Source: Methanobacteriota archaeon (GTDB taxonomy: Archaea > Thermoplasmatota > E2 > DHVEG-1). From it: a stretch of 64,000 nucleotides of DNA. The first letter of the stretch is position 1; every line of letters begins with the position of its first letter. Of the stretch, positions 39,925 through 57,194 are shown piece after piece. Location: positions 2,580-66,579 of the forward strand of contig CAIRCU010000006.1 of assembly GCA_903877165.1 (NCBI GenBank), written 5' to 3'. Under the pieces are notes generated by a model. The model made no database searches. It was not told the DNA's origin and saw only the letters and a list, made by a program, of their open reading frames with translations. The translations under genes were made by a program, and so were the position numbers.

Positions 39925-39978
39925 CCCATTACCGGAATTGGTATAAACGGCGAGGTTCATACGGCGAACCGAGAGAGA

Positions 39979-41787
39979 GTGACAAGGATTTTTACCCCTA
40001 CCACTATTTTGAAAAAATGGTATTTTTGGCTCATTCTCGTAACATTCTTCGCCATCATTCTGCGGTCGATCCCCGCCTGGACCAATGCGGCCTGGGGCAG
40101 CGACTTCGGCATCTACTACGGCCTCACCAAGGCGTTCGTCAGCACCGGCAACCTCATCAACACGTACAACGGCTGGGGCGGCTCCTACCAGTACTTCCCC
40201 ATCCTTTACACCGTGACCGGCGTCGCTCACTGGCTCACCGGCCTTGACATCCTCGTCGTCATGCCGAAAATCGCCCCGATCTTCGGCGGACTCACGGTCG
40301 CAATCCTCTACTTCATCGTCTACGAGCTCCTCAAACGACGCGACATTGCCTTACTCTCCGCCGCCTTCCTCGCAGTTGCGCCATTCCACGTGTACCAGAC
40401 CAGCCATGCTGCGCCCCTTACCATGGGACATTTCTTCATGCTTCTCTCCCTCTACCTGTTCATTAAATACCTCAAGGACAGCCGTTATCTCCTCCCGCTC
40501 ATCCTCTCCACGATTCTGCTGATTATGTCCCATCACCTCACCACCTACTTCTACCTCATCTCCCTGTTCGGGATTGTCGTCTTCCAAAGCATCAGCACGC
40601 CCCTTCGTGAATTGAAACGTCAGATCCTCTACGTCTTAGTCTGTTCTCTCATGGCCTTCGTCTACTGGTTCACGGTCGCTATTCCCGTCTTCAATGATTA
40701 CATGGGGAAGACCAAGTTGTTCTCCCCGTTGATGCTCGTGGCCCTGTTCTATCTACTGTTCTTCGGATTGTTATTCTTCATTTCGCATGGAAAGGCTCAT
40801 GGATGGTTCTCCCGCTTTGCCATACCGCGGCTCGGTCTGGCGGAAGGACCAGTGAACAGAAAACGAGCCGCTATTTTCCTCATTGTCACGGTCTGTAGCC
40901 TTCTCGGCGCGGCCTTGTTTTTTTTCTTCATCCCGTTCCCGGTCTCTATCGTCAAAATGAATACGACGACCCTCCTCTACTCTCTCCCGATCATCGCGTT
41001 CACCGGCGTCTGCGCTCTAGGACTTGAATGCCTGCGGGAGCTGCAGAACCGGCGGATCATCCAAGGCTGGTTCTTCGCTATTTTCGCCTCATTCACGTTC
41101 GCCTTTTTCACCGGAGACACGACCTTGTTTCCGGACCGCCACATCGAATACCTCATGGTCCCCATGTGCATCATCTCCGCATACGGCCTGTACCGATTCC
41201 TCGAAGGGAAACTTCATGTCCCCTCACTTCCCGCGCTGTCGCTGCAGCACATCCCAACCCGTCAGTGGCTCATCGTCTGCATCGCCAGCTTTATCATTTG
41301 CTCCAACGGCATGGCGGTGTACCCTGTGAAGAACTCCGTAGGCGGTATCGACGAAACCATCTCCCAACCCTCACTAGCAGCCATCCAATGGGTGACTCAG
41401 AATCTTGACAGAAATCAGACTCTTGTCGCGACCGACCTGCGGCTCTCGAAGATTGCCTGGGCTGACGGCTTCAATACCACCTTTGAGGCCACGAACGAAA
41501 CCTGGACCAGCGACAACTGGTCAGGATGTCTTAGCGACCTCGAAGGCAATGAGACCCGAGGCAGAATTACCACGATTGTCATCGACGACGTGATGAAAAA
41601 CAGCGTCGTCAACCTCGCCTTATTCCGCAACGAGTACATGACCAACGCATCATACCAGAAATTCGCGGCAGAGCCCTTCCACCTCCTCTACCGAAACGAC
41701 ACCAGGACTTCGGAAGGCGAGATCGTCCACTGGGTCGAAGTGTACGCGGTGAACTGGACGTACATCGAACACTATAAGACCCGCTAG
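39979..41787 (+). CDS. GT-C superfamily membrane glycosyltransferase (PMT/ArnT-like); not AglB
   Basis: It has about 11 N-terminal TM helices with an early acidic loop (AWGSDFGIYYG) and a C-terminal soluble domain of about 200 aa. No WWDYG motif is present. Confidence 0.45.
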   Translation: MTRIFTPTTILKKWYFWLILVTFFAIILRSIPAWTNAAWGSDFGIYYGLTKAFVSTGNLINTYNGWGGSYQYFPILYTVTGVAHWLTGLDILVVMPKIAPIFGGLTVAILYFIVYELLKRRDIALLSAAFLAVAPFHVYQTSHAAPLTMGHFFMLLSLYLFIKYLKDSRYLLPLILSTILLIMSHHLTTYFYLISLFGIVVFQSISTPLRELKRQILYVLVCSLMAFVYWFTVAIPVFNDYMGKTKLFSPLMLVALFYLLFFGLLFFISHGKAHGWFSRFAIPRLGLAEGPVNRKRAAIFLIVTVCSLLGAALFFFFIPFPVSIVKMNTTTLLYSLPIIAFTGVCALGLECLRELQNRRIIQGWFFAIFASFTFAFFTGDTTLFPDRHIEYLMVPMCIISAYGLYRFLEGKLHVPSLPALSLQHIPTRQWLIVCIASFIICSNGMAVYPVKNSVGGIDETISQPSLAAIQWVTQNLDRNQTLVATDLRLSKIAWADGFNTTFEATNETWTSDNWSGCLSDLEGNETRGRITTIVIDDVMKNSVVNLALFRNEYMTNASYQKFAAEPFHLLYRNDTRTSEGEIVHWVEVYAVNWTYIEHYKTR

Positions 41788-41814
41788 CGGCTTACCCGTT
41801 GTAGGGATGCAAAA

Positions 41815-42924
41815 ATGCGAGTCGCGGAAATCACCACCTACAAGGAGGGAGGGGTGTATACCCATGTTGCAAAGCTCGCATCCCGACTCCCAGACCAGAC
41901 GCTTCTGATTACCGGGAATTCAAAGAAATCAGGGTACGAAGAAGGCGATGGCCTGCGGTTCTTCCATGTTCCCTGCCTGTTCTCTCTGCAGGAAATCTAT
42001 TTCATCAACCCTCCGGGGTCGGTTCGAAAAGTCCGTCAGGTACTAAGGGAGAACGATATCCAGCTTCTACATCTCCACGGGCCGCTGTTTTCCTTCGGCG
42101 GCGCCCTGTATCGGAAATCCTCGGTGCCTGTGGTTGTCACCACCCATTACGTGCTTGATTTCAAAGGAAACCGATTCGCCGCGGCTCTCTACACGGGAGT
42201 CATCCGCTGGATGACTCGGCGCATGGCCCGGTATGCGCAACGCGTCATTTGTGTCAACAAGGACTATGCGAAAGTGTACGCCTCATGGGGTATTGATCCT
42301 AAAAAGATCGTCTACATCCCGAACGGGATCGATACCGAGACGTTCTCGCCGGGTCCTTCGGATATAAAACAATCGCTTGATTGTCAGCAGCTCATCGTCT
42401 ACTGGGGTCGTCTCGGATATCAAAAAAATGTCTCCACTCTCATCCAGGCCTTCAAGAATGTCACCATCCCCGGCGTGAAATTAGCAGTCATCGGGAAAGG
42501 GCCGGATCTGCCGAAACTCCAGGCACTCGCTGGCACCGACGGCCGCATCGTCTTCCCTGGGTATCTCACTGAAAATGAGCTGCTCCGTTACGCTCGGGGT
42601 GCAGACCTCGCCGTGCTTCCCTCCAGAGGGGAGAGTTGGGGGCTGGTGATCGGTGAGGCGATGGGCTGCGGCCTGCCCGTGATTTCCAGCGATGTCGGCA
42701 TGGCACGGGAGCTGCTCGGAGACGACCGCGGGGTTGTGTTGAACGGTGAGGCTGTTGATGAACTCACCCAGAAAATAGAGTATCTCCTGCGTCATCCTGC
42801 TGAGTCACAGGCCATGGGCGCGCGAGCCAGGGCATTCGTCGTGGATCGATACAGTTGGACTCAAGTTGCCACGCAGGTCCGCATGCTCTACGAGGCTTGT
42901 GTTAGTGAAAGAGGTACGGGCTGA
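41815..42924 (+). CDS. glycosyltransferase family 4
   Basis: The C-terminal GT4 signature is PSRGESWGLVIGEAMGCGLPVISSDVG. Confidence 0.75.
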   Translation: MRVAEITTYKEGGVYTHVAKLASRLPDQTLLITGNSKKSGYEEGDGLRFFHVPCLFSLQEIYFINPPGSVRKVRQVLRENDIQLLHLHGPLFSFGGALYRKSSVPVVVTTHYVLDFKGNRFAAALYTGVIRWMTRRMARYAQRVICVNKDYAKVYASWGIDPKKIVYIPNGIDTETFSPGPSDIKQSLDCQQLIVYWGRLGYQKNVSTLIQAFKNVTIPGVKLAVIGKGPDLPKLQALAGTDGRIVFPGYLTENELLRYARGADLAVLPSRGESWGLVIGEAMGCGLPVISSDVGMARELLGDDRGVVLNGEAVDELTQKIEYLLRHPAESQAMGARARAFVVDRYSWTQVATQVRMLYEACVSERGTG

Positions 42925-43891
42925 GGGACGAGGCGATTGAGCGCGGCGACGCGAACACGTCCGTGGCGAAATATTGGTACCACCCGCAGTTGCGGTCGCA
43001 GGCCTGCATGGCCTTTCTCGCCGCCTGGGCTTGTGGGGTTTGGAGGAACTCCATAAAGCTGCCTTCCGTGAAGTTGTAGAGGTGTTCACCAATGGTGCGA
43101 CAGGGGTAGAACAGGCCGCCGTCTGAGTCGATGATCACTGACGATGTCGAGCACCCATGGCTGGTGTTGATGTTGTCGAGGAAGCCTTTCGGCGTGGTGA
43201 TCGTCTGCGGGTACAGTTTCTTGAGCCGGAGGATTTCGGTGCGGAACGCCGCGGGTTCCGGATAGTAATCGTCGGTGCCATCCAGGTGGCAGGCGGGCAT
43301 GATCACAGTGCGGGCGTGGGCATCATGGATGCGTTTGACTTTCTTTTCGAGGGCCGGGAGTGTTTCTTTGGTCACGACGATCTGGATGCAGATTTCTGGG
43401 CCGTACGACTGGAATTCTTCGAGGCGGTCGAAGAACTCAAGGTTCCCATGGCCTTCGTCGATGCTGATGTGCAGGTAGTCGATGTATCGGGCGTACTCCG
43501 TCATCGGTCGCTTGTCGAGGAGGTGGCCGTTCGTGGTGAAGAAGAGGTAGAAGGGTTTCGTGGAGGCGTATTTGAGGATCTCGCCGAGGTCCTTTCTGAC
43601 GAGCGGGTCGCCGCCCTCAAGGCTGAGGACGATGATGCTGGAGGCGGCGAGGTTATCCAGTACTTTGTAGACGCCGTCGGTGGGCAGGTCCGGGGTCTTC
43701 TCTTTCCAGACGTTGCAGAAGGCGCACTGCAGGCTGCAGTGATGGGTGACTTTGAAGGAGGCGTAGAAGGGATAGACGGCCTCGTGAGCCAGGGAGTTCG
43801 TCAGGGCGTACCGTACTGTCGAGAGGTACTTGGAGGGTGGCAGGGTTTTCATCGTCTGAACATTCCGTAACAGACGATGCGTCATAAGCAT
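42902..43891 (-). CDS. radical SAM protein with partial SPASM/twitch-like C-terminal Cys residues
   Basis: CSLQCAFCNVW is a CxxxCxxC motif, and GGDP is a SAM-binding glycine motif. The C-terminal Cys residues are ...C...C and CDRNC. Confidence 0.7.
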   Translation of the reverse strand: MLMTHRLLRNVQTMKTLPPSKYLSTVRYALTNSLAHEAVYPFYASFKVTHHCSLQCAFCNVWKEKTPDLPTDGVYKVLDNLAASSIIVLSLEGGDPLVRKDLGEILKYASTKPFYLFFTTNGHLLDKRPMTEYARYIDYLHISIDEGHGNLEFFDRLEEFQSYGPEICIQIVVTKETLPALEKKVKRIHDAHARTVIMPACHLDGTDDYYPEPAAFRTEILRLKKLYPQTITTPKGFLDNINTSHGCSTSSVIIDSDGGLFYPCRTIGEHLYNFTEGSFMEFLQTPQAQAARKAMQACDRNCGWYQYFATDVFASPRSIASSLSPYLFH

Positions 43892-43964: not shown

Positions 43965-44132
43965 ATGCCAAAGAAAGCGGAGAAGTGCAACTCGTGCGGT
44001 AAGGGGTTGCTCGAACAGGGATCGACTACGTTCCCCTGTCCCAGCTGCGCCACCGCCATCGGACGTTGCTGCAACTGCCGTGAGCAAAGCATCGATTACA
44101 TCTGTCCGCAGTGCGGGTTTCGAGGACCCTGA
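43965..44132 (+). CDS. Zn-ribbon protein (COG2888-like), conserved upstream partner of aEF-1beta
   Basis: Manual translation gives MPKKAEKCNSCGKGLLEQGSTTFPCPSCATAIGRCCNCREQSIDYICPQCGFRGP, with four CxxC pairs. It sits immediately upstream of EF-1beta. Confidence 0.6.
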   Translation: MPKKAEKCNSCGKGLLEQGSTTFPCPSCATAIGRCCNCREQSIDYICPQCGFRGP

Positions 44133-44146
44133 CGGGGATTTTTACT

Positions 44147-44419
44147 ATGGGCGAAGTCATCGCGTTAATCCGAATGATGCCTGACGGCGTGCTCAGTGAC
44201 CAGGAGATGGACGTCATCGCTGGGGAAGTCCGGAAGGTTATCCAGAAGCCGATTCGCCTTGGGCGCGTTGAAGTCAAGGAAATCGCGTTCGGTCTTAAGG
44301 GTCTTGATGTGACCATCGTGGTCCCGGACTCCGAAGGCGGCCTGGATCCGATTGTCGAGAAACTAGGGAAGATTAAAAAAGTCGACAACGTGGAAGTCGT
44401 CGACGTCGGCAGAATCTAA
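44147..44419 (+). CDS. translation elongation factor aEF-1 beta
   Basis: MGEVIALIRMMPDG...EIAFGLKGLDVTIVVPDSEGG...VDVGRI matches aEF-1beta, which is about 90 aa. I chose the start at the internal Met. The ORF-track start is 44111. Confidence 0.8.
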   Translation: MGEVIALIRMMPDGVLSDQEMDVIAGEVRKVIQKPIRLGRVEVKEIAFGLKGLDVTIVVPDSEGGLDPIVEKLGKIKKVDNVEVVDVGRI

Positions 44420-45102
44420 CCGGCTTTATCGACCGCTATTTTCATGGGCTCCTGATAGAAGATCAGAGCCTCCTTACCGTTATCCGTCGAATAGTAGATA
44501 GGATACGCGCTGTTCGACGTGTCCCCTTCGACGAGCTCCGCGAAATGCATCTTGTTGAGGTGCCACTTGACGACATGATGGTTCATGTTCAGTGCATGGG
44601 CGATCTCCAGCAGATGCTTGCCGGGATGGTCGCTGATGAACTGCAGGATGTCCCGGGCGTTCTTGTTCCGAAGCACGGACTCGGCGATCGCCCGCTGTCG
44701 GACTTCAAGGCCGCCTTCGACGAGGTAGTACACCTTCTTGCCGCCGATAAGTCGGCTGCGCACCAGGTTCGTCTGCTCCAGTTTCCGCAGATGCCAGGCG
44801 GCGTTGCTCGGCTTCAGATCTAGCTCCCGGGCGATCTCCCGGAGATGCGAACCCGGGTACTCATCGATATAGTCATAGAGGTGCTTGCGCGTCTCCGTGT
44901 CCAAGACGTTCTCCGGCGTCACGTACTTGATGCCGCCATAGAAGAACAAGAAGCCAAAGATTACTGCCACGAGAATGATAATGACTGTGGTCGTGGCCGC
45001 TCCTGTTCCTTCCGACGGCGACGTCGATGCCAGCACGCCAGGGGCTACATTCAGCAAAAACACGACGGCTACGATGAACGCGATGCCTTCCTTGTACTGC
45101 AC
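44416..45102 (-). CDS. membrane-anchored transcriptional regulator with two ArsR-like wHTH domains
   Basis: Two N-terminal hydrophobic helices are present. The two wHTH units are HLREIARELDLKPSNAAWHLRKLEQTNLV and HLLEIAHALNMNHHVVKWHLNKMHFAELV. It is divergent from the paralog array. Confidence 0.6.
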   Translation of the reverse strand: MQYKEGIAFIVAVVFLLNVAPGVLASTSPSEGTGAATTTVIIILVAVIFGFLFFYGGIKYVTPENVLDTETRKHLYDYIDEYPGSHLREIARELDLKPSNAAWHLRKLEQTNLVRSRLIGGKKVYYLVEGGLEVRQRAIAESVLRNKNARDILQFISDHPGKHLLEIAHALNMNHHVVKWHLNKMHFAELVEGDTSNSAYPIYYSTDNGKEALIFYQEPMKIAVDKAG

Positions 45103-45357
45103 TGCTATCCCATCCTTATATTTCCTGCATCCCTACTATTAGGAAGACATCTCATCCCTCCTTAAAAAACTTCCCAGCCCATGTCCTACAGGAGGTCCAC
45201 CCAAATACGAACTTATTTAAAGAAGCTCCCTCTTTATATGTGGTGGATGCGGGAGGACAAAATGCAGGAAAAACAGCGAATTATACAAATTTTCTTCCGT
45301 TAACCTCTCACAGCCAAAGAGGACAAGAGAGTAAAATAGCCAAAGGGGAAAGGGGTT

Positions 45358-47742
45358 ATGGCTGCACGACGGAAAATGTATTCATTGATTATCCTGCTGT
45401 TGCTTCTGAGCGCGAATGCCGCGGCGATCGTCCCGGTTCTCGCTCAATCGACATCACCTGATTCTGAATCTCAACAAAGCGCAGCATCCGCAGTAAAAGA
45501 ACCATCCGTAGTCCCGTTTACCTTCACGGTCTACGGAAAAGACGGACTGCGAACGTACACCACTCAGATGCCGTTCGCTGACGCGCAAGCCATTCTCGCG
45601 TCCTGCCGCACTCTCGCCAACACTATGGTCAGCAACCCACAGGGGACGACAAATCCGGGTCTGCAAGATCAGCTCCTGACCACGCTCCTAGCGCATCATG
45701 CCATCCCACAAGAAATCAAAGACAACGTGCTCGCTGTCCTGCGTCAGACGCCCAGATTTCCCTTCAGTTCCCATGAGAGCCGACATCTCACCCAGTTCAA
45801 CTCCCAGGCAAGCGAATGGCTCTGCAGCTTCGCCTCTGCGGGGGATGGCTCCTCCCTACCGATTATCATCCTGCCGCGGTTCATCCCCTTTATCCTGACC
45901 CCGATTCCGCGTGTGATCATGCGATGGAACGCTGACTATGCGGTCACCTCCTGCGGTGCGCTGCGGTCAAGCAACGGGTTCATCGCCGAAGGCGCACAGA
46001 GCGGTATCGCCCTGGGATTCTGGGGCATCGGCTTCACCGTCCACCTTCCACCCTTCATGAACACCTACGGGTTGTTCGGATACGCGGTCTACTCCCATGT
46101 GACCTCGGACTACATCGAGTTCTACCCTCCGAACAATCCTCCGGAGATCTCCGGCAGTGACCCCGCCGACGGCCAAACGGATGTCCCTGTGGCGCTCAGC
46201 GAGCTTCGGTTCCGCCTCGCCGATGCGGACGGAGACCTCATGAGCTACAACGTAACCACCATCCCGGACATCGGCTCCGGCAGCGGTGGTCTCAAGCCTG
46301 ACGGCGTCTACTCCTTACCTGTCAGCGGATTGAAAGAACTCACGAAGTACTCGTGGACCGTCAGCGTATCAGACGGCAAGGACACCACCACTCAGACTTA
46401 TTCCTTCACGACCGAAGGCGTCTCCCCTATCGTCTCCAACCCCCGGCCCTTCGATGGGGAAAAGGAAGTCCAAACCGACCTCACCGAGCTGCGCTTCACC
46501 CTGCAAGACCCCCAGCATGACTTCATGAGCTACACCGTCCAGACCTCTCCGGACATCGGGTCCGCAAGCGCCACGAACGTCGCGGGAGGAACCTACACCG
46601 TGCCTGTCAACGGCCTGACCATCGGGACCCTCTACCATTGGTACATCAACGCCACCGACGGGACCCATTGGACTAGGATGGTCCTCAGCTTCACCTCAGG
46701 GTACCCCTCCCACTTCAACCCCTATGACTATGGATGGCAGTACCGAAAACAGATCACTATCGACCACACCAAGGTCACTGAGCCCCTCACGAACTTCACG
46801 GTCCTCATCAGCATCACGGACAGCGACCTGACGAAGGCACAAAGCGACGGAGGCGACATCCTCTTCATGGACAACACCGGTTCCGCCGTGAAGATCCACC
46901 ATGAAATCGATGTCTTCGACTCATCCACCGGCACGCTTGCCGCATGGGTCCAAGTCCCTGAGCTATCCTCCACCACTGACACGGTGTTCTACATGTACTA
47001 CGGGAACCCTACCTGCGTCGACCAAGCATACCCTCAGGAGACCTGGGATTCCTCGTACCTCGCAGTCTGGCACATGGGGGACGCAACGACTTCGACCATC
47101 ACGGACAGCACGAATAACGACAACACCGGGACGAAAGGCGTAGTCAACGGACCGACGGAGCAGGGCGGCGTGACCGGAACAAGCCAGGACTTCGACGGCA
47201 CCGACGACTACATCCAATTCACCACCCCCATCATCCCCACCGGGCCAAAGACCGTCACCGGATGGATCAAGCGGCATACCACGGCAGACTACGGTGTCGT
47301 CCTCGCGACCTCCACCGGGATTAGCAGCCTAGACCGCGGAACCGCGTGGACCATGATCCCCGGCAACGACAAAAAAATGCAGTGCTTCCTCGGCAACGAC
47401 GAGTACGGATCCCATTACATGACCGTCTACATCACGATCCCAGACCTGACGAATTGGCACTACTACGCTATGACCTACGACGGTACGACCCTGCAGATGT
47501 ACCTCGATGGGTCCTCCGATGTCTCGACGACCACCAAGGTCGGCAGCGAAACCCCGCCAGACTACAACCTCCGCATGGGCAAGACCAACCATCCTTCCTA
47601 CGTCTACCCCCTCGACGGCACCCTCGATGACATCACCATCTCGGATGTCCCCCGCAGCATCGGTTGGGTACAGACATCGTACCAGACGATGAGCGACCCC
47701 GCACACTTCTTCACTGAAGGACCGGAGGAACACGGTCCATAA
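45358..47742 (+). CDS. large secreted protein, paralog 1: novel N-domain + 2x Ig/FN3-like + DUF2341 + LamG (concanavalin-like)
   Basis: It has a signal peptide (LIILLLLLSANAAAIVPVLA). The DUF2341 signature is YGWQYRKQITIDH...NFTVLISITDSDL...DGGDILFMD...WVQVPELSS..DTVFYMYYGNP. The LamG_3-like C-terminus is LDDITISDVPRS. Confidence 0.7.
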   Translation: MAARRKMYSLIILLLLLSANAAAIVPVLAQSTSPDSESQQSAASAVKEPSVVPFTFTVYGKDGLRTYTTQMPFADAQAILASCRTLANTMVSNPQGTTNPGLQDQLLTTLLAHHAIPQEIKDNVLAVLRQTPRFPFSSHESRHLTQFNSQASEWLCSFASAGDGSSLPIIILPRFIPFILTPIPRVIMRWNADYAVTSCGALRSSNGFIAEGAQSGIALGFWGIGFTVHLPPFMNTYGLFGYAVYSHVTSDYIEFYPPNNPPEISGSDPADGQTDVPVALSELRFRLADADGDLMSYNVTTIPDIGSGSGGLKPDGVYSLPVSGLKELTKYSWTVSVSDGKDTTTQTYSFTTEGVSPIVSNPRPFDGEKEVQTDLTELRFTLQDPQHDFMSYTVQTSPDIGSASATNVAGGTYTVPVNGLTIGTLYHWYINATDGTHWTRMVLSFTSGYPSHFNPYDYGWQYRKQITIDHTKVTEPLTNFTVLISITDSDLTKAQSDGGDILFMDNTGSAVKIHHEIDVFDSSTGTLAAWVQVPELSSTTDTVFYMYYGNPTCVDQAYPQETWDSSYLAVWHMGDATTSTITDSTNNDNTGTKGVVNGPTEQGGVTGTSQDFDGTDDYIQFTTPIIPTGPKTVTGWIKRHTTADYGVVLATSTGISSLDRGTAWTMIPGNDKKMQCFLGNDEYGSHYMTVYITIPDLTNWHYYAMTYDGTTLQMYLDGSSDVSTTTKVGSETPPDYNLRMGKTNHPSYVYPLDGTLDDITISDVPRSIGWVQTSYQTMSDPAHFFTEGPEEHGP

Positions 47743-47762
47743 AAAAAATAGGAGATAGAATC

Positions 47763-50159
47763 ATGAGAAAAGAACGGTATAGTAAAATACAGCTTGTCCT
47801 CTGCATATGCCTCCTGTCGGTATTGCTCTGCGCAAGCCTAGCCCCTACCCTCGCAAGTCCGATATCCTACAACGCAACGCCACAAACGTCCAAGACGACG
47901 GTCGCAACAGAACCCCAGGCCATCCCCTTCACCGTCACGGTCTACGAAAAGACAGGGCTTCGTACCTACACGACCCAGATGAAGGAAAGCGACATCCAAG
48001 CCATCCTGCAGGAAGCATCAGCGCTGAGACTCGCTGTGCAGCACTCGCCGCAGGCAGAAGCAACCCAGCAGCTCCAAACGCAGTTTATCACCTCGTTACT
48101 TACGTATCAGGCGATACCGCAAGAAGCCAAGGACCAGGTGCTCGCCTCGCTGATGCAGCCGCCGACACTGCGCTCCCGCCACACTTCAGCTTCTCCCTTG
48201 TCCGGCACTAGCTCGGAAGGGACGGAATGGCTCTGCAACTTTGTCTCTGCTGGAGAAGGTTCCTCAGCGCCGATCATCATCCTGCCGCGGTTCATCCCCT
48301 TCATCCTCAGTCCCATCCCGCGTGTGTTCATGCGCTGGAGCGCTGACGACGCAATCACCTCCTGTGGCGCTCTACGGTCAAACAACGGGTTCGTCGCTGA
48401 AGGCGCACAGAGCGGTATCGCCCTGGGATTCTGGGGCATCGGCTTCACCGTCCACCTCCCGCCCCTCATGAACTCCTACGGTTTGTTCGGGTATGCTCTC
48501 TATGCGCATGTGACCGCTGATTACATAGAGTTCTTCCCGCCGAACAGCCCACCGGAGATCACGGGCGCTGACCCCGCCAATAATCAGCAGAACGTCCCGG
48601 TTACGCTGTCGGAACTGCGTTTCCAAATCGCTGACGCTGACCAGGATCTCATGAGTTACAACGTGACTACTTATCCGGATATCGGCTCCGGCAGTGGCGG
48701 CCTCAAATCCGATGGTGTCTACACGATTCCGATTAGCGGCCTGCAGGAACTCGCGAGCTACACCTGGCATGTCACGGTCAGTGACGGAAAGGATACAACG
48801 GATCAGACCTACAAGTTCACCACTGAAGCCGTAGCCCCGGTCATCTCAAACCCAAATCCTGCCGATGGGGAGCGCGAAGTCCCCATGGACATCCCTCAGC
48901 TTCAGTTCACCCTGAAAGACTACCAGCATGATGCCATGGACTATACTGTCGTGACGCAGCCAGATATCGGATCTGTTCAAGCCACAGGGGTCCACGATGG
49001 AACCTACACGGTCCCCGTGTCCGGTCTCACCTATGGCGTGACCTATCGATGGTTCATCAATGCGACCGACGGTACGCACTGGACCAGGAAGGTTCTTTCC
49101 TTCATCACGGGATACCCGTCGATTTTCGATCCATACGACTACGGCTGGCACTATCGCAAGCAGATCACCATCATACACGGCCAGGTCGCTGCCGACCTTC
49201 AGAACTTCCCGGTCCTCATCAGCATGACGGACCCAGATCTCGTTAGAGCACAGGCGGATGGCGCGGATTTCTTGTTCATGAGCGGACCAGGGCCCGCCAC
49301 CAAATGGCACCATGAGATTGAGACTTTCACGCACGACTCCGGCAGCCTTGTCGCCTGGGTCAACATCCCGCAGCTGTCCTCAACCCAGGACACCACCTTT
49401 TACCTGTACTATGGGAATCCGAACAGCTCTGACCAACAATATCCTGAAAAAACCTGGGATTCGTCAACCCTTGCCGTCTGGCATATGAATGACGCCACCA
49501 CATCGACTATCAAGGACAGCACGGGGCATGGTTTCACAGGCGTCAAGAAGGCGGCGTTGATGCCTTCGCAATGGTCCGGGAAGGTCGGCTATGGGCAGCT
49601 CTTCAACCTCACAGATTCAATATGGGAGTACATCGTCGTTTACGATCAAGGAGGCCTCAGCATCCCCAATGATTTCACCCTCTCTGCATGGATTCTGCCT
49701 TACACCGATGCTGGCATGAACGTCGCAGGGAAGCACCAGGAGATCCGGGCAGATTATTCGGGATATGCCATCCATTGGAACGTAGTGGGTTCTGAGACGA
49801 AGATGTCCCTGCGTTGCGATGGAGGCGGGTACGCATACCAATACATCTATGCGGACAACCAAGTTCCCAGCAATACCTGGTACTATTTGTCTGGTGAGAA
49901 GCGACTCGGGACGAACTATGTGTTCGTCGACGGCCAGCAGCAGAGCCATACCGGGACACAGTCCCTCCTCAACTCCGAGTACCCGTTCTGCATCGGTGCT
50001 TGGACGACTGACCCGAATAGCATCAACTTCAATGGCGTCATCGATGAGGTCCGCCTCTCGTCCACAGGTCGATCCCCTGCGTGGATCCAGACCGAGTATC
50101 ACACCATGAGTGATCCTGCATCGTTCTTCACGGTAGGGCCTGAGGAACATAGTCCATAA
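47763..50159 (+). CDS. large secreted protein, paralog 2 (same architecture)
   Basis: It has a signal peptide, a conserved N-domain (QSGIALGFWGIGFTVHLPP), DUF2341 (YGWHYRKQITIIHG...FYLYYGNP) and a LamG-like C-terminus (IDEVRLSSTGRSPAWIQTEY). Confidence 0.7.
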   Translation: MRKERYSKIQLVLCICLLSVLLCASLAPTLASPISYNATPQTSKTTVATEPQAIPFTVTVYEKTGLRTYTTQMKESDIQAILQEASALRLAVQHSPQAEATQQLQTQFITSLLTYQAIPQEAKDQVLASLMQPPTLRSRHTSASPLSGTSSEGTEWLCNFVSAGEGSSAPIIILPRFIPFILSPIPRVFMRWSADDAITSCGALRSNNGFVAEGAQSGIALGFWGIGFTVHLPPLMNSYGLFGYALYAHVTADYIEFFPPNSPPEITGADPANNQQNVPVTLSELRFQIADADQDLMSYNVTTYPDIGSGSGGLKSDGVYTIPISGLQELASYTWHVTVSDGKDTTDQTYKFTTEAVAPVISNPNPADGEREVPMDIPQLQFTLKDYQHDAMDYTVVTQPDIGSVQATGVHDGTYTVPVSGLTYGVTYRWFINATDGTHWTRKVLSFITGYPSIFDPYDYGWHYRKQITIIHGQVAADLQNFPVLISMTDPDLVRAQADGADFLFMSGPGPATKWHHEIETFTHDSGSLVAWVNIPQLSSTQDTTFYLYYGNPNSSDQQYPEKTWDSSTLAVWHMNDATTSTIKDSTGHGFTGVKKAALMPSQWSGKVGYGQLFNLTDSIWEYIVVYDQGGLSIPNDFTLSAWILPYTDAGMNVAGKHQEIRADYSGYAIHWNVVGSETKMSLRCDGGGYAYQYIYADNQVPSNTWYYLSGEKRLGTNYVFVDGQQQSHTGTQSLLNSEYPFCIGAWTTDPNSINFNGVIDEVRLSSTGRSPAWIQTEYHTMSDPASFFTVGPEEHSP

Positions 50160-50178
50160 GTCAAATGAAGGGAAAGAT

Positions 50179-52551
50179 ATGGGAGCGAGATCGTATCGGA
50201 AAAAATGGTCCGCCGTCTGCATCGGTCTACTGATGCTTTCAGTTTGTGCAAGCATCATCCCTGGATCCGCGGGTACTCCATCTAAGGATGTTGCCGTTCA
50301 AAGCGAAAGGACTATGGTTGCGGCAAGTCCACATACTATCCCCGTCACAGTCACCCTTTACGAAAAGACAGGGCTTCGTACCTACACGACCCAGATGAAG
50401 GAAAGCGACATCCAAGCCATCCTGCAGGAAGCCTCAGCGTTGAGACTCGCTATGCAACGCTCGCCGCAGACAGAAGCAACCCAGCAGCTCCAAACGCAGT
50501 TTATCACCTCGTTACTTACGTATCAGGCGATCCCGCAGGAAGCCAAGGACCAGGTGCTCGCCTCGCTGATGCAGCCGCCGGCCCTGCGCTCCCGCCACAC
50601 TTCAGCTTCTCCTTTGTCCGGCACTAGCTCGGAAGGGACGGAATGGCTCTGCAGCTTCGCCTCAGCCGGGGAAGGTGCATCCTTGCCGATTATCATCCTG
50701 CCGCGGTTCATTCCCTTCATCCTCAGCCCCATCCCGCGTGTGTTCATGCGCTGGAGCGCTACCGATGCGGTCACCTCCTGCGGTGCGCTGCGGTCAAACA
50801 ACGGGTTCGTCGCCATGGGTCAGCAGCAGGGCATCGCCCTGGGATTCTGGGGCATCGGCTTCACCGTCCACCTCCCGCCCCTCATGAACTCCTACGGATT
50901 GTTCGGATATGCGCTCTATTCGCATGTGACCGCCGAGTACATGGAGTACTACCCGCCGAACAGCCCACCGGAGATCATAGAGACCGATCCTGCAGATGGT
51001 CAACAAATGGTTTCTCTGTCTACCACCGACCTACGTTTCAGCATTAAGGATGTCGACGGGGATCTCATGAGCTACAACGTGACGACGTCTCCAGACATCG
51101 GTTCCGGCAGCGGCGGCCTGAAGCCAGGCGGATTATATTCTATCCCGATAAGTGGGCTGGAGAGTTTCACTCAATACACTTGGCATATCCAGGTAAGTGA
51201 CAGCAAAGATACCATTGAAAAAACCTTGACGTTTACCACAGAGCCGGTAGCACCAGTTATTTCGAATCCATCACCAGCAGATAGGGAACGTTATGTACCA
51301 ACCGACCTCCAACAGCTACAGTTCACCTTAAAGGATTTTCAAGGTGACGCGATCAACTATACTGTTGAAACCTCGCCCTTCATCGGCTCCGGAAGTGGTA
51401 CCGGTGTACACAACGGTACCTATACCGTAGCTGTCAGCGGTCTCGAAAACTCCACGACATACCGATGGTACATCAACGCGACAGATGGCACACACTGGAC
51501 ACGAACAACATTCAGATTTGATACCGGGTTCCCTGCCAACTTCGATCCCTTTGAACACGGCTGGCATTATCGGAAACAGATCACTATTGGCCACACTAAC
51601 ATCCCTCAGGATTTGGCCAATTTCCCAGTCTTAGTAAGCACCGTTGATACTGATCTTCAAGAGAAAGCACAACCAAACGGTGACGACATCCTTTTCATGA
51701 ACAATACTGGTTTCGCTACACGGTTAAACTATGAGATAGAGCAATACGACGGGTCCCTCGGAAAGCTCATCGCCTGGGTCAATATCACACAGCTTTCATC
51801 GAATGAAGACACCACGTTTTATATGTATTATGGAAATCCAACAACCCTGAGTCAACAAAATCCAGAAAAAACCTGGGATTCAAATTATGTGGCTGTATGG
51901 CATTTCGGAGAAACATCAGGAACAAATATTGCAGACAGCACGTCAAACCACTTCAACGCAACAGCGAATACCTATACCCCAGTCACGGCTGGGCGTATAG
52001 GAAACGGAAGATATTTCGATATGACAAATAGTGAAATATACGTTGGTACTCCATCAGCATTTGGTGGTATGACTTCATATACGGTCGAGTCCTGGGCAAA
52101 TCCAAAAAGCATAAGCGGGGAACATAGGATATTTGATAGGAGTGGACAAAGCAATCCAAATACTATTTTATTCTATCAGAACAATGCTTTGTCATATTTG
52201 ACTACAAATAATGTTGATTCCTCAAGTTACATAAATGCCTTTACTGTCGATAGTTGGACACATGCAGTCGGGGTATTCACGGGTTCAAGTGGGGAAAGCG
52301 CCGTCTATAAAAATGGAGTAAAAGGCATGCCAATTACGACAACACAAGCCAATCCATCTGCCGGGAATTTCACGATATACATAGGGCGAGCATGCCTAAG
52401 TTCTTCTTCATCGTATAGATGGTATGGAACCCTTGATGAACTGCGTTTCTCAAAAATAGCTAGAACCTCTGCATGGATTAGCGTTTCATACCAGAATCAA
52501 GACGATCCAACGGGGTTCATGAATATCGGACCTGAAGAACCAGGCCCCTAG
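50179..52551 (+). CDS. large secreted protein, paralog 3 (same architecture)
   Basis: It has a signal peptide, a conserved N-domain, DUF2341 (HGWHYRKQITIGHT...FYMYYGNP) and a LamG-like C-terminus (LDELRFSKIARTSAWISVSY). Confidence 0.7.
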   Translation: MGARSYRKKWSAVCIGLLMLSVCASIIPGSAGTPSKDVAVQSERTMVAASPHTIPVTVTLYEKTGLRTYTTQMKESDIQAILQEASALRLAMQRSPQTEATQQLQTQFITSLLTYQAIPQEAKDQVLASLMQPPALRSRHTSASPLSGTSSEGTEWLCSFASAGEGASLPIIILPRFIPFILSPIPRVFMRWSATDAVTSCGALRSNNGFVAMGQQQGIALGFWGIGFTVHLPPLMNSYGLFGYALYSHVTAEYMEYYPPNSPPEIIETDPADGQQMVSLSTTDLRFSIKDVDGDLMSYNVTTSPDIGSGSGGLKPGGLYSIPISGLESFTQYTWHIQVSDSKDTIEKTLTFTTEPVAPVISNPSPADRERYVPTDLQQLQFTLKDFQGDAINYTVETSPFIGSGSGTGVHNGTYTVAVSGLENSTTYRWYINATDGTHWTRTTFRFDTGFPANFDPFEHGWHYRKQITIGHTNIPQDLANFPVLVSTVDTDLQEKAQPNGDDILFMNNTGFATRLNYEIEQYDGSLGKLIAWVNITQLSSNEDTTFYMYYGNPTTLSQQNPEKTWDSNYVAVWHFGETSGTNIADSTSNHFNATANTYTPVTAGRIGNGRYFDMTNSEIYVGTPSAFGGMTSYTVESWANPKSISGEHRIFDRSGQSNPNTILFYQNNALSYLTTNNVDSSSYINAFTVDSWTHAVGVFTGSSGESAVYKNGVKGMPITTTQANPSAGNFTIYIGRACLSSSSSYRWYGTLDELRFSKIARTSAWISVSYQNQDDPTGFMNIGPEEPGP

Positions 52552-52566
52552 TTTTTTTCTTTTACA
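52552..52566 (+). terminator. oligo-T tract (TTTTTTTCTTTT) immediately after the third paralog
   Basis: A T7 run follows directly after the TAG stop. Confidence 0.25.
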
Positions 52567-52579
52567 TTGATATGCATGG

Positions 52580-52642
52580 TATCACACCATGAGCGATCCT
52601 GCATCGTTCCACACCGTAGGCCCGGAAGAACAGGGAGTCTAA
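52580..52642 (+). pseudogene. 63-bp relic of the 3' end of a fourth paralog
   Basis: It encodes YHTMSDPASFHTVGPEEQGV*, which matches the C-termini of paralogs 2 and 3 (YHTMSDPASFFTVGPEEHSP) at near-identical DNA. No upstream coding sequence remains. Confidence 0.7.
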
Positions 52643-54401: not shown

Positions 54402-55385
54402 CTACTTCTCCCGAAAAATCGCGTAATTGGCAAGCTCCAGTAGCAGTTGGCGAGCTGCTGAAGGCTGTATCTTCTCGAGGTTGGTTTTCGCCTCGTGGTT
54501 ATAATGAAGGGCAACCGACCGGGCGTACTCAATGGACTTCGATGTCTTGAAGACTTCAAGCACGGACTTGATTTCCTGATCCGAAGCCTTCGGATTCCCG
54601 AAGATCGCCTCAAGAACCGCCTGCTGCTCCGCGTTGCTATGTGAAAGACAGTGGACAGCAATCAAGGTTTTCTTCCCGTTTCGGATATCGTTGCCGATGT
54701 CTTTGCCCAGCACCTCGATGTTGCTGCTTATATCCAGATAGTCATCCCAGATCTGAAACGACAGGCCAAGGAACATCCCGAAGTTCGCGAGAGCATCCAC
54801 CTCATCTTGGGAGCCGCCGCCGATCCGGCCTCCGCCCTTCGCCGCGAGCTGGAACAGCACCCCGGTCTTCTTGCTGATCATATGCAGGTATTCCTTTTCG
54901 CTGACGATCTTACGATGCTCGAAGTCCATGTCGAGCTCCTGGCCTTCGCAGATATCGAGGACGCACTGTACCAAATCGACCTCGAGCTCCTTGAACATCT
55001 CAGGGTCGATTGTCAGCTCATGCATCGCTTGGAACGATTTCGCGAACAGCAAATCCCCGGCGAGAATCGCGGTTGATTCACCGAACTTTATATGAACCGT
55101 CTGAAGGCCACGTCGCACCAGGGATTTATCCATGATATCGTCGTGAACCAACGTAAAATTATGCATCAACTCAAGCGCGGCACCAAACGGCAGCGCCATC
55201 CGCTGCTCCCCGAACACGCTCTCGCAGGCCAGCATCGCGATCACGGGGCGCATCCGCTTCCCGCCGCCCAGCGGCAGATGCCGCACGGCCTCGTACAGCC
55301 TCTGCGGATCGCGCGCCGGCAGCAGATGATGCCAGTACGATTCGAAGATTGTCACCCGCTTGGTAATCTCACTCGTCAAGTCCAT
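54402..55385 (-). CDS. idsA: geranylgeranyl diphosphate synthase (short-chain polyprenyl synthase)
   Basis: FARM is LVHDDIMD, and the second Asp-rich motif is WDDYLD. Confidence 0.85.
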   Translation of the reverse strand: MDLTSEITKRVTIFESYWHHLLPARDPQRLYEAVRHLPLGGGKRMRPVIAMLACESVFGEQRMALPFGAALELMHNFTLVHDDIMDKSLVRRGLQTVHIKFGESTAILAGDLLFAKSFQAMHELTIDPEMFKELEVDLVQCVLDICEGQELDMDFEHRKIVSEKEYLHMISKKTGVLFQLAAKGGGRIGGGSQDEVDALANFGMFLGLSFQIWDDYLDISSNIEVLGKDIGNDIRNGKKTLIAVHCLSHSNAEQQAVLEAIFGNPKASDQEIKSVLEVFKTSKSIEYARSVALHYNHEAKTNLEKIQPSAARQLLLELANYAIFREK

Positions 55386-56415
55386 ACGTCACTTCCGTCG
55401 TTGACAATTTTTCAACAGAGTCGGCTCCTACTAAGAACATCACGGTCCGCAGCTCGCGGAGAATCGTTTCACATTCCAGAATCGTGGCTTTCGCATCCTT
55501 CAACGCCGGCTTCAACATCGTATGTGCTACCCCGGCTGCGCTCGCTCCGAGGATTAACGACTTGGCGGCATCCAGGCCTGTGCGCACCCCGCCGGTCGCG
55601 ATGATCGGCAGCTCCCAGTCCGTGGCTCTGCCGACCTCAAGGATGCAAGTCGGTGTCGGGACTCCCCAATCCCAGAACGTGATGCCTTCTCGGCTATGAA
55701 TCGCGTCCCCTTTAGCCTTCGCACGGTAGTACTCCACGGCGGCGAACGATGTTCCTCCTGCACCTCCGACGTCGATCGCGGCAATCTTCGTCTTCCTGAG
55801 GAGACTGGCGGCTTTGCCGCAGATCCCCGCACCGCTCTCCTTTACGATCACCGGGCGGCCGAATTCCCGTGAGAGCATGTCGATCATCTCGAGACATCCC
55901 TTCGCACGGGCCTCACCCTCGGGTTGAATGGCCTCTTGCAGGAAATTCAGGCAGACCGCGAGAACATCCGCATCAATCATCGAGACGATTTTTTCGGCAT
56001 TTGCGAGAATCTCTTTCTTCTCCCACAGCACCATCTGGGATGCCCCTATGTTGGCGATCTTCAAGGGAATGTCATACTCCGTGATGATGCTGTAGGTGTC
56101 TGCGAGTTTCTCGTTCTCCAAGGCGGCCCGCTGCGAACCGACGCCGAGCGCAACCTGATGCTCTGCGGCGGCCGCCGCCAGATGTTCGTTGATTTTTTTT
56201 CCTTCGGGATACCCGCCGGTCATCCCTGAGAGGACGAGGGGGGCACCTAGGTGTTTCCCAAGCAGCGTTGTCGAAAGATCGATATCCTGTTCGTTGATTT
56301 CTGGGAGGGCGTTGTGCATCAGCTTCACGTCATCCCAGTAGTTATGATGCATCGCGATATTTTCCCGTACCGCGATTTGGATGTGGTCCCGTTTTCGCTC
56401 CTCGGTCTGGTTCAT
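55369..56415 (-). CDS. fni: isopentenyl-diphosphate delta-isomerase, type 2 (FMN-dependent)
   Basis: It has a TIM-barrel IDI-2 pattern: an N-terminal RKRDHI segment, the glycine-rich FMN site GGTSFAAVE, and a length of 348 aa. Confidence 0.85.
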   Translation of the reverse strand: MNQTEERKRDHIQIAVRENIAMHHNYWDDVKLMHNALPEINEQDIDLSTTLLGKHLGAPLVLSGMTGGYPEGKKINEHLAAAAAEHQVALGVGSQRAALENEKLADTYSIITEYDIPLKIANIGASQMVLWEKKEILANAEKIVSMIDADVLAVCLNFLQEAIQPEGEARAKGCLEMIDMLSREFGRPVIVKESGAGICGKAASLLRKTKIAAIDVGGAGGTSFAAVEYYRAKAKGDAIHSREGITFWDWGVPTPTCILEVGRATDWELPIIATGGVRTGLDAAKSLILGASAAGVAHTMLKPALKDAKATILECETILRELRTVMFLVGADSVEKLSTTEVTYGLDE

Positions 56416-57194
56416 GGTCGTGCTCCTTGAATCTGAGTAAATCGTGATGGGTTTCCCATAAGAATATCATAGACCCGGTCTTTTACATTCCCATTCACGA
56501 GGATGACGTCAATACCGAGTTGCGCAATACGGGTGATCGTCTCGAGTTTTCCTTGCATACCTTTGGTGACGTCCGTACGCGTGTCTAATCCGGTTGAAAG
56601 ACGGGGAATATCCTTGACAGCAATCGTCTCAATAAACGTGGCCTTCGGGTCGGTTTTCGGGTTTGCTGTATACAGCCCGTCTTCGTCCATGACGAACACG
56701 ACTTTTTCTGGGTGAAACTGGGTCGCTAACGCCTGCATGAGGAGATCCCCGGAGCAGATCGAGCCGCCCAGCTGGGAATCCAAGGCGACGTCCCCGAAGG
56801 TGACCGGGATGAACCCGCGCTTCAGATAATCTGAGAACACGGTGAAATCCATGGTTTTCAACTGATGATTGTCCAATTCTAGGATAGCATGGGGCGGCAG
56901 CGACATCACCGGCAAGCCTTGGTGGATGAGGGCATCCATGACGAGGCTGTTGAGCCGTAGGACGCTTGCGTGGGTCTGGGCGAACCCCAGGATTTGCGTT
57001 GGTTCGGTGAGTCCTTCGCTGAGTCTGTGCTGCTTCGCGAGGATGTGCCCAAAGGATCCTGCCCCATGGACGAGGATGTAGTCTTTGTTGGCTTTCTTGA
57101 TTTCCCTGGCTAGGCGGTCGACGGTTTCGTGGCGAAACGTTCCTTCTTTGGCTTTATCAGTAATAATACTTCCGCCCAGCTTCACAAGAAACAT
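56412..57194 (-). CDS. isopentenyl phosphate kinase (archaeal mevalonate pathway)
   Basis: It belongs to the amino-acid-kinase family (VKLGGSIITDK...HGAGSFGH) and is about 260 aa. It is in an operon with fni and idsA. Confidence 0.8.
   Translation of the reverse strand: MFLVKLGGSIITDKAKEGTFRHETVDRLAREIKKANKDYILVHGAGSFGHILAKQHRLSEGLTEPTQILGFAQTHASVLRLNSLVMDALIHQGLPVMSLPPHAILELDNHQLKTMDFTVFSDYLKRGFIPVTFGDVALDSQLGGSICSGDLLMQALATQFHPEKVVFVMDEDGLYTANPKTDPKATFIETIAVKDIPRLSTGLDTRTDVTKGMQGKLETITRIAQLGIDVILVNGNVKDRVYDILMGNPSRFTQIQGARP

Follow-up and report, generated by a model that had tools for sequence, protein, structure and literature searches.

Large extracytoplasmic archaeal proteins with a DUF2341 domain occur in type IV pilus (Epd) loci, where they have been proposed to act as tip adhesins (Makarova et al. 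2016, PMC4858521), and in bacteria DUF2341 appendages are found on the A subunits of MotA/ExbB-type (GIT) systems (PMC12505986). Here we report on a 64,000-nucleotide stretch of archaeal DNA (contig CAIRCU010000006.1, positions 2,580 to 66,579; the window), which carries three consecutive genes, c1, c2 and c3, for secreted DUF2341 proteins that end in a laminin G-like (LamG) head, next to a divergent gene for a membrane-tethered regulator with two winged helix-turn-helix (wHTH) domains. The host is an uncultured, MBG-D/Thermoprofundales-like Thermoplasmatota archaeon. Archaea of this type are abundant in sediments but have not been cultured, and their cell surface is essentially uncharacterised. 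In the reading that we favour, and to which we give somewhat better than an even chance, the array is an operon of surface lectins or adhesins within a variable secretome island, and the regulator is independent of it. The genes concerned are the following:

45358-47742, plus strand: c1, 794 aa, with signal peptide, N-domain, two immunoglobulin (Ig)-like modules, DUF2341 and LamG head type 1 (open reading frame list, Pfam)
47763-50159, plus strand: c2, 798 aa (open reading frame list, Pfam, AlphaFold2)
50179-52551, plus strand: c3, 790 aa, architecture as in c1 and c2 (open reading frame list, Pfam)
44416-45102, minus strand: regulator gene, 228 aa (open reading frame list)

With the Epd proteins, the array products share the DUF2341 domain, their character as large extracytoplasmic archaeal proteins and a presumed role in adhesion. 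In contrast to them, the array has neither a pilus locus nor class III signal peptides, and it has a distinct N-terminal domain, an explicit LamG head and tandem genes in a variable slot between the GluRS gene and the regulator gene. DUF2341 is likewise what the array products have in common with the GIT A subunits; however, they are secreted multi-domain proteins without a fused or adjacent MotA/TolQ/ExbB protein, and not channel subunits. The lack of such a partner had already been pointed out in an earlier sequence-only reading of the window, and indeed no member of the MotA/TolQ/ExbB family was found in c1-c3 (Pfam) or in the ten flanking genes.

The same reading had described three co-oriented, secreted paralogs of ~800 aa with a shared architecture at the coordinates given above, and this was borne out by the open reading frames, the Pfam matches and a structural model. 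All three proteins matched DUF2341 (PF10102; 32.3, 28.1 and 44.9 bits for c1, c2 and c3, respectively, with a Pfam gathering cut-off of 23.4) and Laminin_G_3 (PF13385; 69.7, 58.5 and 58.5 bits, cut-off 27.6). The fn3 family (PF00041) scored in c3 alone, with 23.2 bits under the 25-bit cut-off, and 11 of 66 relatives matched it at E<1e-3. The N-terminal hydrophobic segments, with their AxA-like sites, have the look of class I signal peptides and not of class III pilin signals. A full-length AlphaFold2 model of c2, built with 66 sequences, had a mean predicted local distance difference test score (pLDDT) of 88.9. The resulting division of c2, in amino acid positions, was:

1-31: signal peptide (helix 3-30 in the model)
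about 28-49: disordered linker (model)
52-140: alpha-module, beta-hairpin plus helices (model)
151-169, 187-203, 209-232 and 235-258: four long strands of the beta core (model)
263-357 and 358-452: Ig-like modules (model)
about 464-585: DUF2341
about 590-798: LamG/concanavalin A (ConA)-like head

In this model the two Ig-like modules appeared as seven-strand beta-sandwiches of ~95 aa each, with the sandwiches themselves at 265-354 and 360-449, and on the predicted structure the label 'Ig/FN3-like' is reasonable. The conserved C-terminal tail of c2 formed the last strand (789-796), and it thus belongs to the fold rather than being a sorting signal. When the model was compared with the PDB by Foldseek, its C-terminal part matched lectin-like jelly rolls with a probability of 1.0, namely the lectin domain of trypanosomal trans-sialidase, tetanus and botulinum Hc-N, the lectin module of the Streptococcus sanguinis PilC pilin, and the carbohydrate-binding domain 4 of the GH43 arabinanase AbnA (5hon; TM-score 0.76, root-mean-square deviation 3.3). 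Like these ConA/LamG modules and PF13385 in general, the heads have a C-terminal fold of ~200 aa that is likely to bind a carbohydrate or receptor; unlike them, they are not joined to a catalytic or toxin partner domain, and their sequence identity to them is 8-20%. The same architecture was present in 43-53 of the 66 family members, with DUF2341 matched in 43, and in a few members the head was replaced by CBM96 or disaggregatase repeats.

The match to the PilC minor pilin lectin module raises the idea that the array proteins serve a type IV pilus-like filament, either as adhesins at its tip or as its accessory subunits. DUF2341 proteins in Methanococcus Epd pilus loci are required for transformation (PMC4858521, PMC10133366), and a fimbrial family, TafC (NF052521), was the only NCBIfam match of the array proteins. 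This match was weak, however: c2 reached 22.3 bits, with a cut-off of 410, over the LamG part only. In addition, the signal peptides look like class I (AxA), and neither the ten flanking genes nor the related loci that we examined included a gene for a pilin, a prepilin peptidase, an ATPase or a platform protein. We therefore consider a role in a pilus most improbable.

The N-domain (aa ~50-262) had been assigned to no recognised family in the sequence-only reading. In agreement with this, it had no match in Pfam, NCBIfam or the PDB sequences and no fold match in the PDB or BFVD. The sole match of its profile to PDB sequences, 3jqh (E 5e-4), was a coiled-coil artefact in a helical neck and was discarded. 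Among 1.84 billion representatives, the profile retrieved 233 clusters (50% identity) at E<1e-3; these are typically proteins of 600-820 aa in which the domain is N-terminal. The named source records, which are few, were all Thermoplasmata, Thermoplasmatales or Thermoplasmatota metagenome-assembled genomes. What is new is the pairing of this N-domain with exchangeable heads within a family restricted to one lineage, although this is unsurprising for uncultured archaea. Most matches of ~250-280 aa, which might have been stand-alone short N-domain proteins, ended abruptly and looked cut by contig ends, and we make no claim for such a form. A further candidate short form (P0006, L011:10001-12430, plus strand, on a 271-kb contig) was in fact a full-length gene with many stops and frameshifts, either a pseudogene or the product of an error-prone assembly. 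At an unrelated locus in another Thermoplasmatota metagenome-assembled genome (L003:4546-7321, plus strand), at least two family copies, all of which have only one Ig module, stand in tandem; the complete copy is 687 aa long. Tandem copies are therefore not confined to the window.

The beta core was the most conserved part of the protein, with 41 columns invariant across 15 aligned sequences and 22 across 66. Its strands are ~20 residues long, with one hydrophobic and one glycine-rich face, as seen in the strand GFWGIGFTV with its alternating glycines and hydrophobic residues. The invariant residues are mostly Gly, Pro and aromatic, and C, R, W, Q and Y are among them. Conceivably, this core could be the active module of secreted enzymes or toxins that are targeted by their LamG heads, as neurotoxins and glycosidases are. 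Besides the strong conservation and the invariant C, R, W, Q and Y, the lifestyle of the host might speak for this, since MBG-D archaea are thought to live by extracellular polymer degradation. Yet no catalytic family or fold was matched in Pfam, NCBIfam, the PDB or BFVD, the invariants, being chiefly Gly, Pro and aromatic, are typical of structural constraint, and in the prediction the long strands form a flat sheet in which no pocket is evident. An enzymatic or toxic function thus seems quite unlikely to us.

The copies had also been called homogenised in the sequence-only reading. This was upheld for the 5′ ~750 nt of c2 and c3, where gene conversion has acted locally, but not for the remainder, where synonymous divergence (dS) is saturated and the heads are ~23% identical. 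At the nucleotide level, c2 and c3 were 90-97% identical over codons 51-150, the longest exact matches being 74, 65 and 61 nt. This high identity was limited to the first ~260 codons; the remaining parts showed 56-68% identity, and the LamG part 33-38%. Accordingly low dS values were obtained for c2-c3, amounting to 0.18 over aa 51-150 and 0.38 over aa 151-262. Over the latter segment, dS was 0.48 for c1-c3 and 0.68 for c1-c2, and all other segments gave values above 0.9 or were saturated. As a reference for the comparison of each domain, we used the one copy present in a sister lineage (locus L005), an orthologue that is 72% identical to c2 overall. For c2 and this orthologue, dS was at least 0.93 in each segment. 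Over aa 51-150, c2 was 92% identical to c3 but only 47% identical to L005, whereas the head of c2 was 82% identical to that of L005 and 23% identical to that of c3. The Ig and DUF2341 modules of c2 and L005 were 78-84% identical. Since the head, Ig and DUF2341 parts of c2 are close to L005 and c2 resembles c3 only at the 5′ end, the copies are therefore old paralogs with local gene conversion. Specifically, these comparisons indicate that c2 predates the split from the L005 lineage, that c3-like sequence was later copied over the 5′ part of c2 in a conversion tract of ~640-750 nt, and that an older conversion event affected the core of all three copies. The tracts were delimited as follows:

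47913-48548, plus strand: gene-conversion tract in c2, codons 51-262 (dS profile, exact matches)
50329-50964, plus strand: partner tract in c3
about 45802-46137, plus strand: older, weaker tract in c1, confined to the core of the N-domain (N-core)

Beyond the array itself, the head of c1 was 45% identical to that of the family member P0205 and ~23% identical to those of c2 and c3, the head of c2 was 64% identical to that of P0175, and the head of c3 had no relative above 29% among the family representatives. The nonsynonymous divergence (dN) between the heads of c2 and L005 was 0.13, and the head is therefore under purifying selection and not hypermutating. As judged from these values, the heads are discrete, stable and anciently distinct types on a conserved stalk.

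In the scheme that we propose for the surface lectin reading, the products of c1-c2-c3 would be lectin-like proteins that are secreted via Sec and displayed on the cell surface. Their constant part would comprise the conserved N-terminal domain, one or two Ig-like spacers and DUF2341, and their variable part the distal ConA/LamG jelly-roll head. The head would bind glycans or glycoconjugates carried by particles, polymers or other cells, and the three very different heads would provide three specificities. The beta core of the N-core might anchor the protein to the envelope or drive the assembly of oligomers, and such a role would explain why gene conversion between neighbours keeps the N-core uniform. 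Several points weigh against this scheme. Everything in it beyond secretion and a lectin-fold head is what we infer, and LamG folds are contained in enzymes and toxins too. That the N-core acts as an anchor is a guess, for its hydropathy peaks at a KD19 value of 1.63 within a proline-rich stretch, which is only borderline for a membrane helix, and a model of the monomer cannot reveal oligomers. Moreover, the array proteins have no C-terminal transmembrane segment, PGF-CTERM or lipobox as an anchor signal, and could be released instead of retained. Lastly, the co-transcription of c1-c2-c3 is deduced from nothing other than their spacing.

Downstream of c3, the window contains a remnant that had been interpreted previously as the scar of a lost fourth copy:

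52580-52642, plus strand: relic of a c2-like fourth copy, the last 20 codons and the stop, translation YHTMSDPASFHTVGPEEQGV* (nucleotide match to c2)

This interpretation was substantiated, as the 63 nt of the relic matched the last 63 nt of c2 at 50 positions, as compared with 44 for c1 and 34 for c3, and tblastn gave 94% identity over 17 aa (E 1e-4). The similarity ceased abruptly upstream of the relic, and no further array copy was found in the window. The stop codon of the relic lies 46 nt from that of GluRS, and the single copy of L005 ends 44 nt from GluRS; the relic therefore marks the original terminal c2-like copy. A second, independent relic was present at L005 itself (L005:9590-9760, minus strand), where a 39-codon remnant of a c1-type tail ending in TVGPEDHGP* is followed by an inter-copy spacer. 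This remnant is the tail of a lost copy at the c1 position, removed by an internal deletion that retained the promoter of that copy. In a contig from sample ERZ1426812 with an identical regulator, the gene at the c1 position was called with 561 aa and is separated from the regulator by a gene-free gap of 956 bp; c1 may be disrupted in this other strain, or the contig may be misassembled.

The copy states observed at the same site thus range from zero via one to three plus a relic, which confirms the copy-number variation in related genomes that the sequence-only reading had suggested looking for. The two independent tail relics record that copy number was altered by deletion and recombination at conserved ends, near the conserved tail. 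Tandem arrays of surface-protein paralogs that evolve by partial gene conversion and deletion are a general phenomenon, seen for instance in bacterial adhesin and antigen families. As in such arrays, the stalk evolves in concert, the distal parts have diverged, copy number varies and relics persist. The difference is that the heads are here old, stable and under purifying selection instead of being fast-switching cassettes, and that we saw no silent donor loci. Neither surface proteins of the DUF2341-LamG kind nor the concerted evolution of tandem arrays is new as such.

Large secreted proteins with Ig-like modules, a highly conserved and possibly self-assembling N-domain, a variable outermost module and a copy number that differs between strains are also what one would expect of S-layer-type envelope subunits, whose alternative heads would vary the surface against viruses. 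Close relatives with the same genomic backbone, however, have no copy at the slot, even if copies elsewhere in those genomes are possible, and an essential lattice protein is not expected to be dispensable. Furthermore, the family is small, with its 233 clusters, and a complete chromosome (L002) yielded only one member when scanned. We regard an S-layer function as improbable.

To describe the site in relatives, we used a metagenome scan for regulator loci, which yielded 80 further loci, not all of them from independent lineages. The backbone common to contigs with regulator homologues consists of IPK, IDI2, GGPP synthase, GluRS, the slot, the regulator and a convergent aEF-1beta with a 4-bp overlap, and continues beyond aEF-1beta with (an LPG-synthase-like transmembrane protein,) a radical SAM protein, GT4, a membrane protein of ~600 aa, GT28 and OMP decarboxylase. 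The neighbours in the window are identical in kind. aEF-1beta adjoined the regulator in 76 of the 80 loci, and GluRS was located upstream of the regulator in 55, which are informative for the slot. Among these 55 loci, the slot was empty (≤200 bp) in 28, 0.3-0.9 kb long in 14 and longer than 1 kb in 13. The long form of the family was found beside the regulator only in L005/L018, with exactly one copy, and in L019, where the copy is cut by the contig end; their regulators are 85% identical to that of the window. In L007/L017 and L020, with equally close regulators (85-87%), the slots were empty and the array was absent. Conversely, family members at five other loci (L001-L004 and L011) had unrelated neighbours and no regulator within 10 kb.

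In 15 of the 17 filled slots that we examined, the main open reading frames were on the strand opposite to the regulator and had a signal-peptide- or lipoprotein-like N-terminus. The two exceptions, L071 and L084, had plus-strand open reading frames resembling NosD-type repeats with no evident signal peptide. The cargo with signal peptides comprised a 120-aa lipoprotein-like protein, NosD/beta-helix proteins and proteins of ~210 aa of no recognised type. The gene for the 120-aa protein, with a signal peptide ending in LSGC followed by FIGTW...NPM, adjoined GluRS in at least 14 related loci (for example L022:7775-8134, L042:9419-9778 and L059:9450-9809, all on the minus strand), and the window is without it. 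In addition, short proteins with an alpha-module were found in the slots of L012/13, L008/L025, L031, L038, L056 and L090, with a length of ~270-305 aa when complete; those of L031 and L056 are cut by contig ends. As in the array proteins, this module has a beta-hairpin and three helices with GLLPxGMS, then xxFC, but the C-halves are hydrophobic and transmembrane-like in place of the invariant beta core. With the alpha-module profile, from which the signal peptide had been removed, the best short protein was matched at E 3e-9 and the others at 1e-4 to 1e-3 among 1087 open reading frames. Coordinates of these short proteins are L012:5679-7380, L008:5164-6950, L038:2237-3061 and L090:8926-9840, all on the minus strand. 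Taken from its gene content, the slot is a variable secretome island, compatible with the turnover of accessory genes.

The regulator had been described as a divergent, membrane-tethered 228-aa protein with a double wHTH, and we found the corresponding two hydrophobic segments and two wHTH stretches. By hydropathy, a signal-peptide-like segment at aa ~6-25, with an AxA-like site at its end, is followed by a transmembrane helix at aa ~39-58, and the wHTH domains are located at aa 69-127 and ~144-205. Pfam matches were HTH_HVO_0163_N (PF24266; 58.4 bits, cut-off 31; two stretches), HTH_20 (45.9 bits, cut-off 27), HTH_5 (32.1 bits, cut-off 22) and HTH_24 (50 bits), those of HTH_24 and HTH_20 in two stretches each; the ArsR/SmtB metalloregulator family of NCBIfam (NF033788) was matched below its cut-off (46.4 versus 55 bits). 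ArnR of Sulfolobus is a membrane-bound archaeal one-component regulator. The protein in the window shares wHTH DNA-binding domains and a membrane tether with regulators of the ArsR/SmtB-like, HTH_HVO_0163_N and ArnR types. Compared with ArsR/SmtB-like and ArnR regulators, however, its wHTHs are in tandem after signal-peptide-like and transmembrane segments, it is almost without ectodomain, and it has no evident metal-binding or HAMP-type sensor. A database search returned 1024 homologues, nearly all of 225-236 aa and with an identity of 63-96%. In an alignment of 108 of them, the cytoplasmic part was almost invariant, with more than 95% of the DNA-binding part unchanged, and the exposed loop between the hydrophobic segments was variable, ~10-15 aa long (~13 aa in the window) and without a sensor domain. 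Together these data place the regulator among the conserved core genes and suggest that it has its own function instead of being a controller dedicated to the array.

Nevertheless, the back-to-back promoters within 255 nt would suit a regulator that senses an envelope signal and controls the divergent array, or any secreted-protein genes that occupy the slot. The opposite-strand, signal-peptide- or lipoprotein-like cargo of 15 of the 17 filled slots examined and the recurrence of the short alpha-module proteins in other lineages fit this idea as well, although surface genes are generally abundant in accessory islands, which the type of cargo may simply reflect. Against it stand the 28 empty slots among 55 beside a regulator whose DNA-binding part hardly varies, the absence of the array from two of four close relatives, the five family loci without a regulator and the short, variable extracytoplasmic loop. 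Such control is, in our judgement, unlikely. With regard to the coupling of regulator and array as a dedicated unit, which had been put forward in the sequence-only reading, the more than 1000 regulator homologues add to the empty slots and the regulator-free family loci, and the search of related genomes for this arrangement returned only L005/L018 and L019. The lack of conservation of the regulator beside such arrays elsewhere had been named beforehand as the observation that would count against this coupling, and a dedicated link is therefore refuted. The slot data would leave room for a weak and loose form of control, in which the regulator acts generically on the divergent promoter.

It is doubtful, but conceivable, that the N-domain is a new Thermoplasmatota-specific module that inserts into the envelope or assembles on it to show exchangeable lectin heads, and that the GluRS-regulator slot is a dedicated exchange site under loose control by the regulator. 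The genes exchanged there would be those for secreted proteins, which have the alpha-module in common in several lineages. The preferred reading, surface lectins in a variable island with an independent regulator, leaves current ideas standing; it adds detail on a family that had not been characterised and corrects a regulatory link that was attractive but lacked support. The family of ~230 clusters, in which a conserved but unclassified N-domain carries interchangeable lectin heads, is a candidate for the attachment of cells to particles or polymers, and its parts could be expressed for binding and structural work. At the same time, the locus shows clearly how an archaeal array of surface genes undergoes gene conversion in segments and loses copies. 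The widely conserved, membrane-tethered double-wHTH protein in a neighbourhood of envelope and lipid biosynthesis is a separate target for study.

Within the array, the spacers between c1 and c2 (20 nt) and between c2 and c3 (19 nt) each contain a purine-rich stretch that reads as a ribosome-binding site, and this spacing suggests that c1-c2-c3 are co-transcribed as one operon. The transcription signals around the array, whose functions are putative, are:

45103-45357: divergent regulator-c1 intergenic region, 255 nt
45126-45136, minus strand: conserved leader motif GTAGGGATGCA of the regulator
45156-45175, minus strand: putative regulator promoter, BRE/TATA-like CCCTCCTTAAAAAACTTCCC
45213-45221, plus strand: second TATA-like box TTATTTAAA, probably for the array
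52552-52563, plus strand: oligo-T run TTTTTTTCTTTT immediately 3′ of the c3 stop, a likely archaeal terminator of the c1-c2-c3 transcript

Oligo-T terminators are known in archaea, and TTTTTTTCTTTT was read as a terminator on this basis. The 255-nt intergenic region aligned end to end with its equivalent in L005 at 68% identity, the second TATA-like box included. The ~75 nt nearest to the regulator were kept in six lineages irrespective of the slot content; this conserved promoter region contains the TATA-like box, GCAGGGATGCA and AGGATGGGA and was present with or without cargo. The element GCAGGGATGCA, which is conserved upstream of the regulator in other lineages too, was considered as an operator shared with the array, but it has no copy before c1. 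Most of its nine matches in the window were intragenic and one was in the leader of GT4, and it was dropped as evidence for coupling. A scan for sigma-70 promoters and intrinsic terminators, which is inapplicable to archaea, gave a result no better than shuffled sequences, and PHROGs and PADLOC returned generic LamG and wHTH matches only.

The ten flanking genes in the window encode OMP decarboxylase, glycosyltransferases, a radical SAM protein, aEF-1beta, GluRS, GGPPS, IDI2 and IPK. Those next to the regulator are arranged as follows:

44111-44419, plus strand: aEF-1beta (EF1_GNE, 57.8 bits)
44416-44419: convergent 4-bp overlap of the stop codons of the regulator and aEF-1beta, which recurs in related loci

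The backbone of the window (38851-43891 and 54402-57194) is rich in envelope and lipid genes, with IPK, IDI2 and GGPP synthase on one side and the radical SAM protein, GT4, the ~600-aa membrane protein, which has no Pfam match, and GT28 on the other; relatives additionally carry the LPG-synthase-like transmembrane protein in this backbone. The regulator may belong to this envelope and lipid gene context rather than to the array. The 11-mer GTAGGGATGCA occurs a second time in the window at 41801-41811 on the plus strand, 4 nt upstream of the start of the GT4 glycosyltransferase gene. With up to one mismatch, it was found nine times in the window as compared with 1.5 expected occurrences, the majority of them inside coding sequence.

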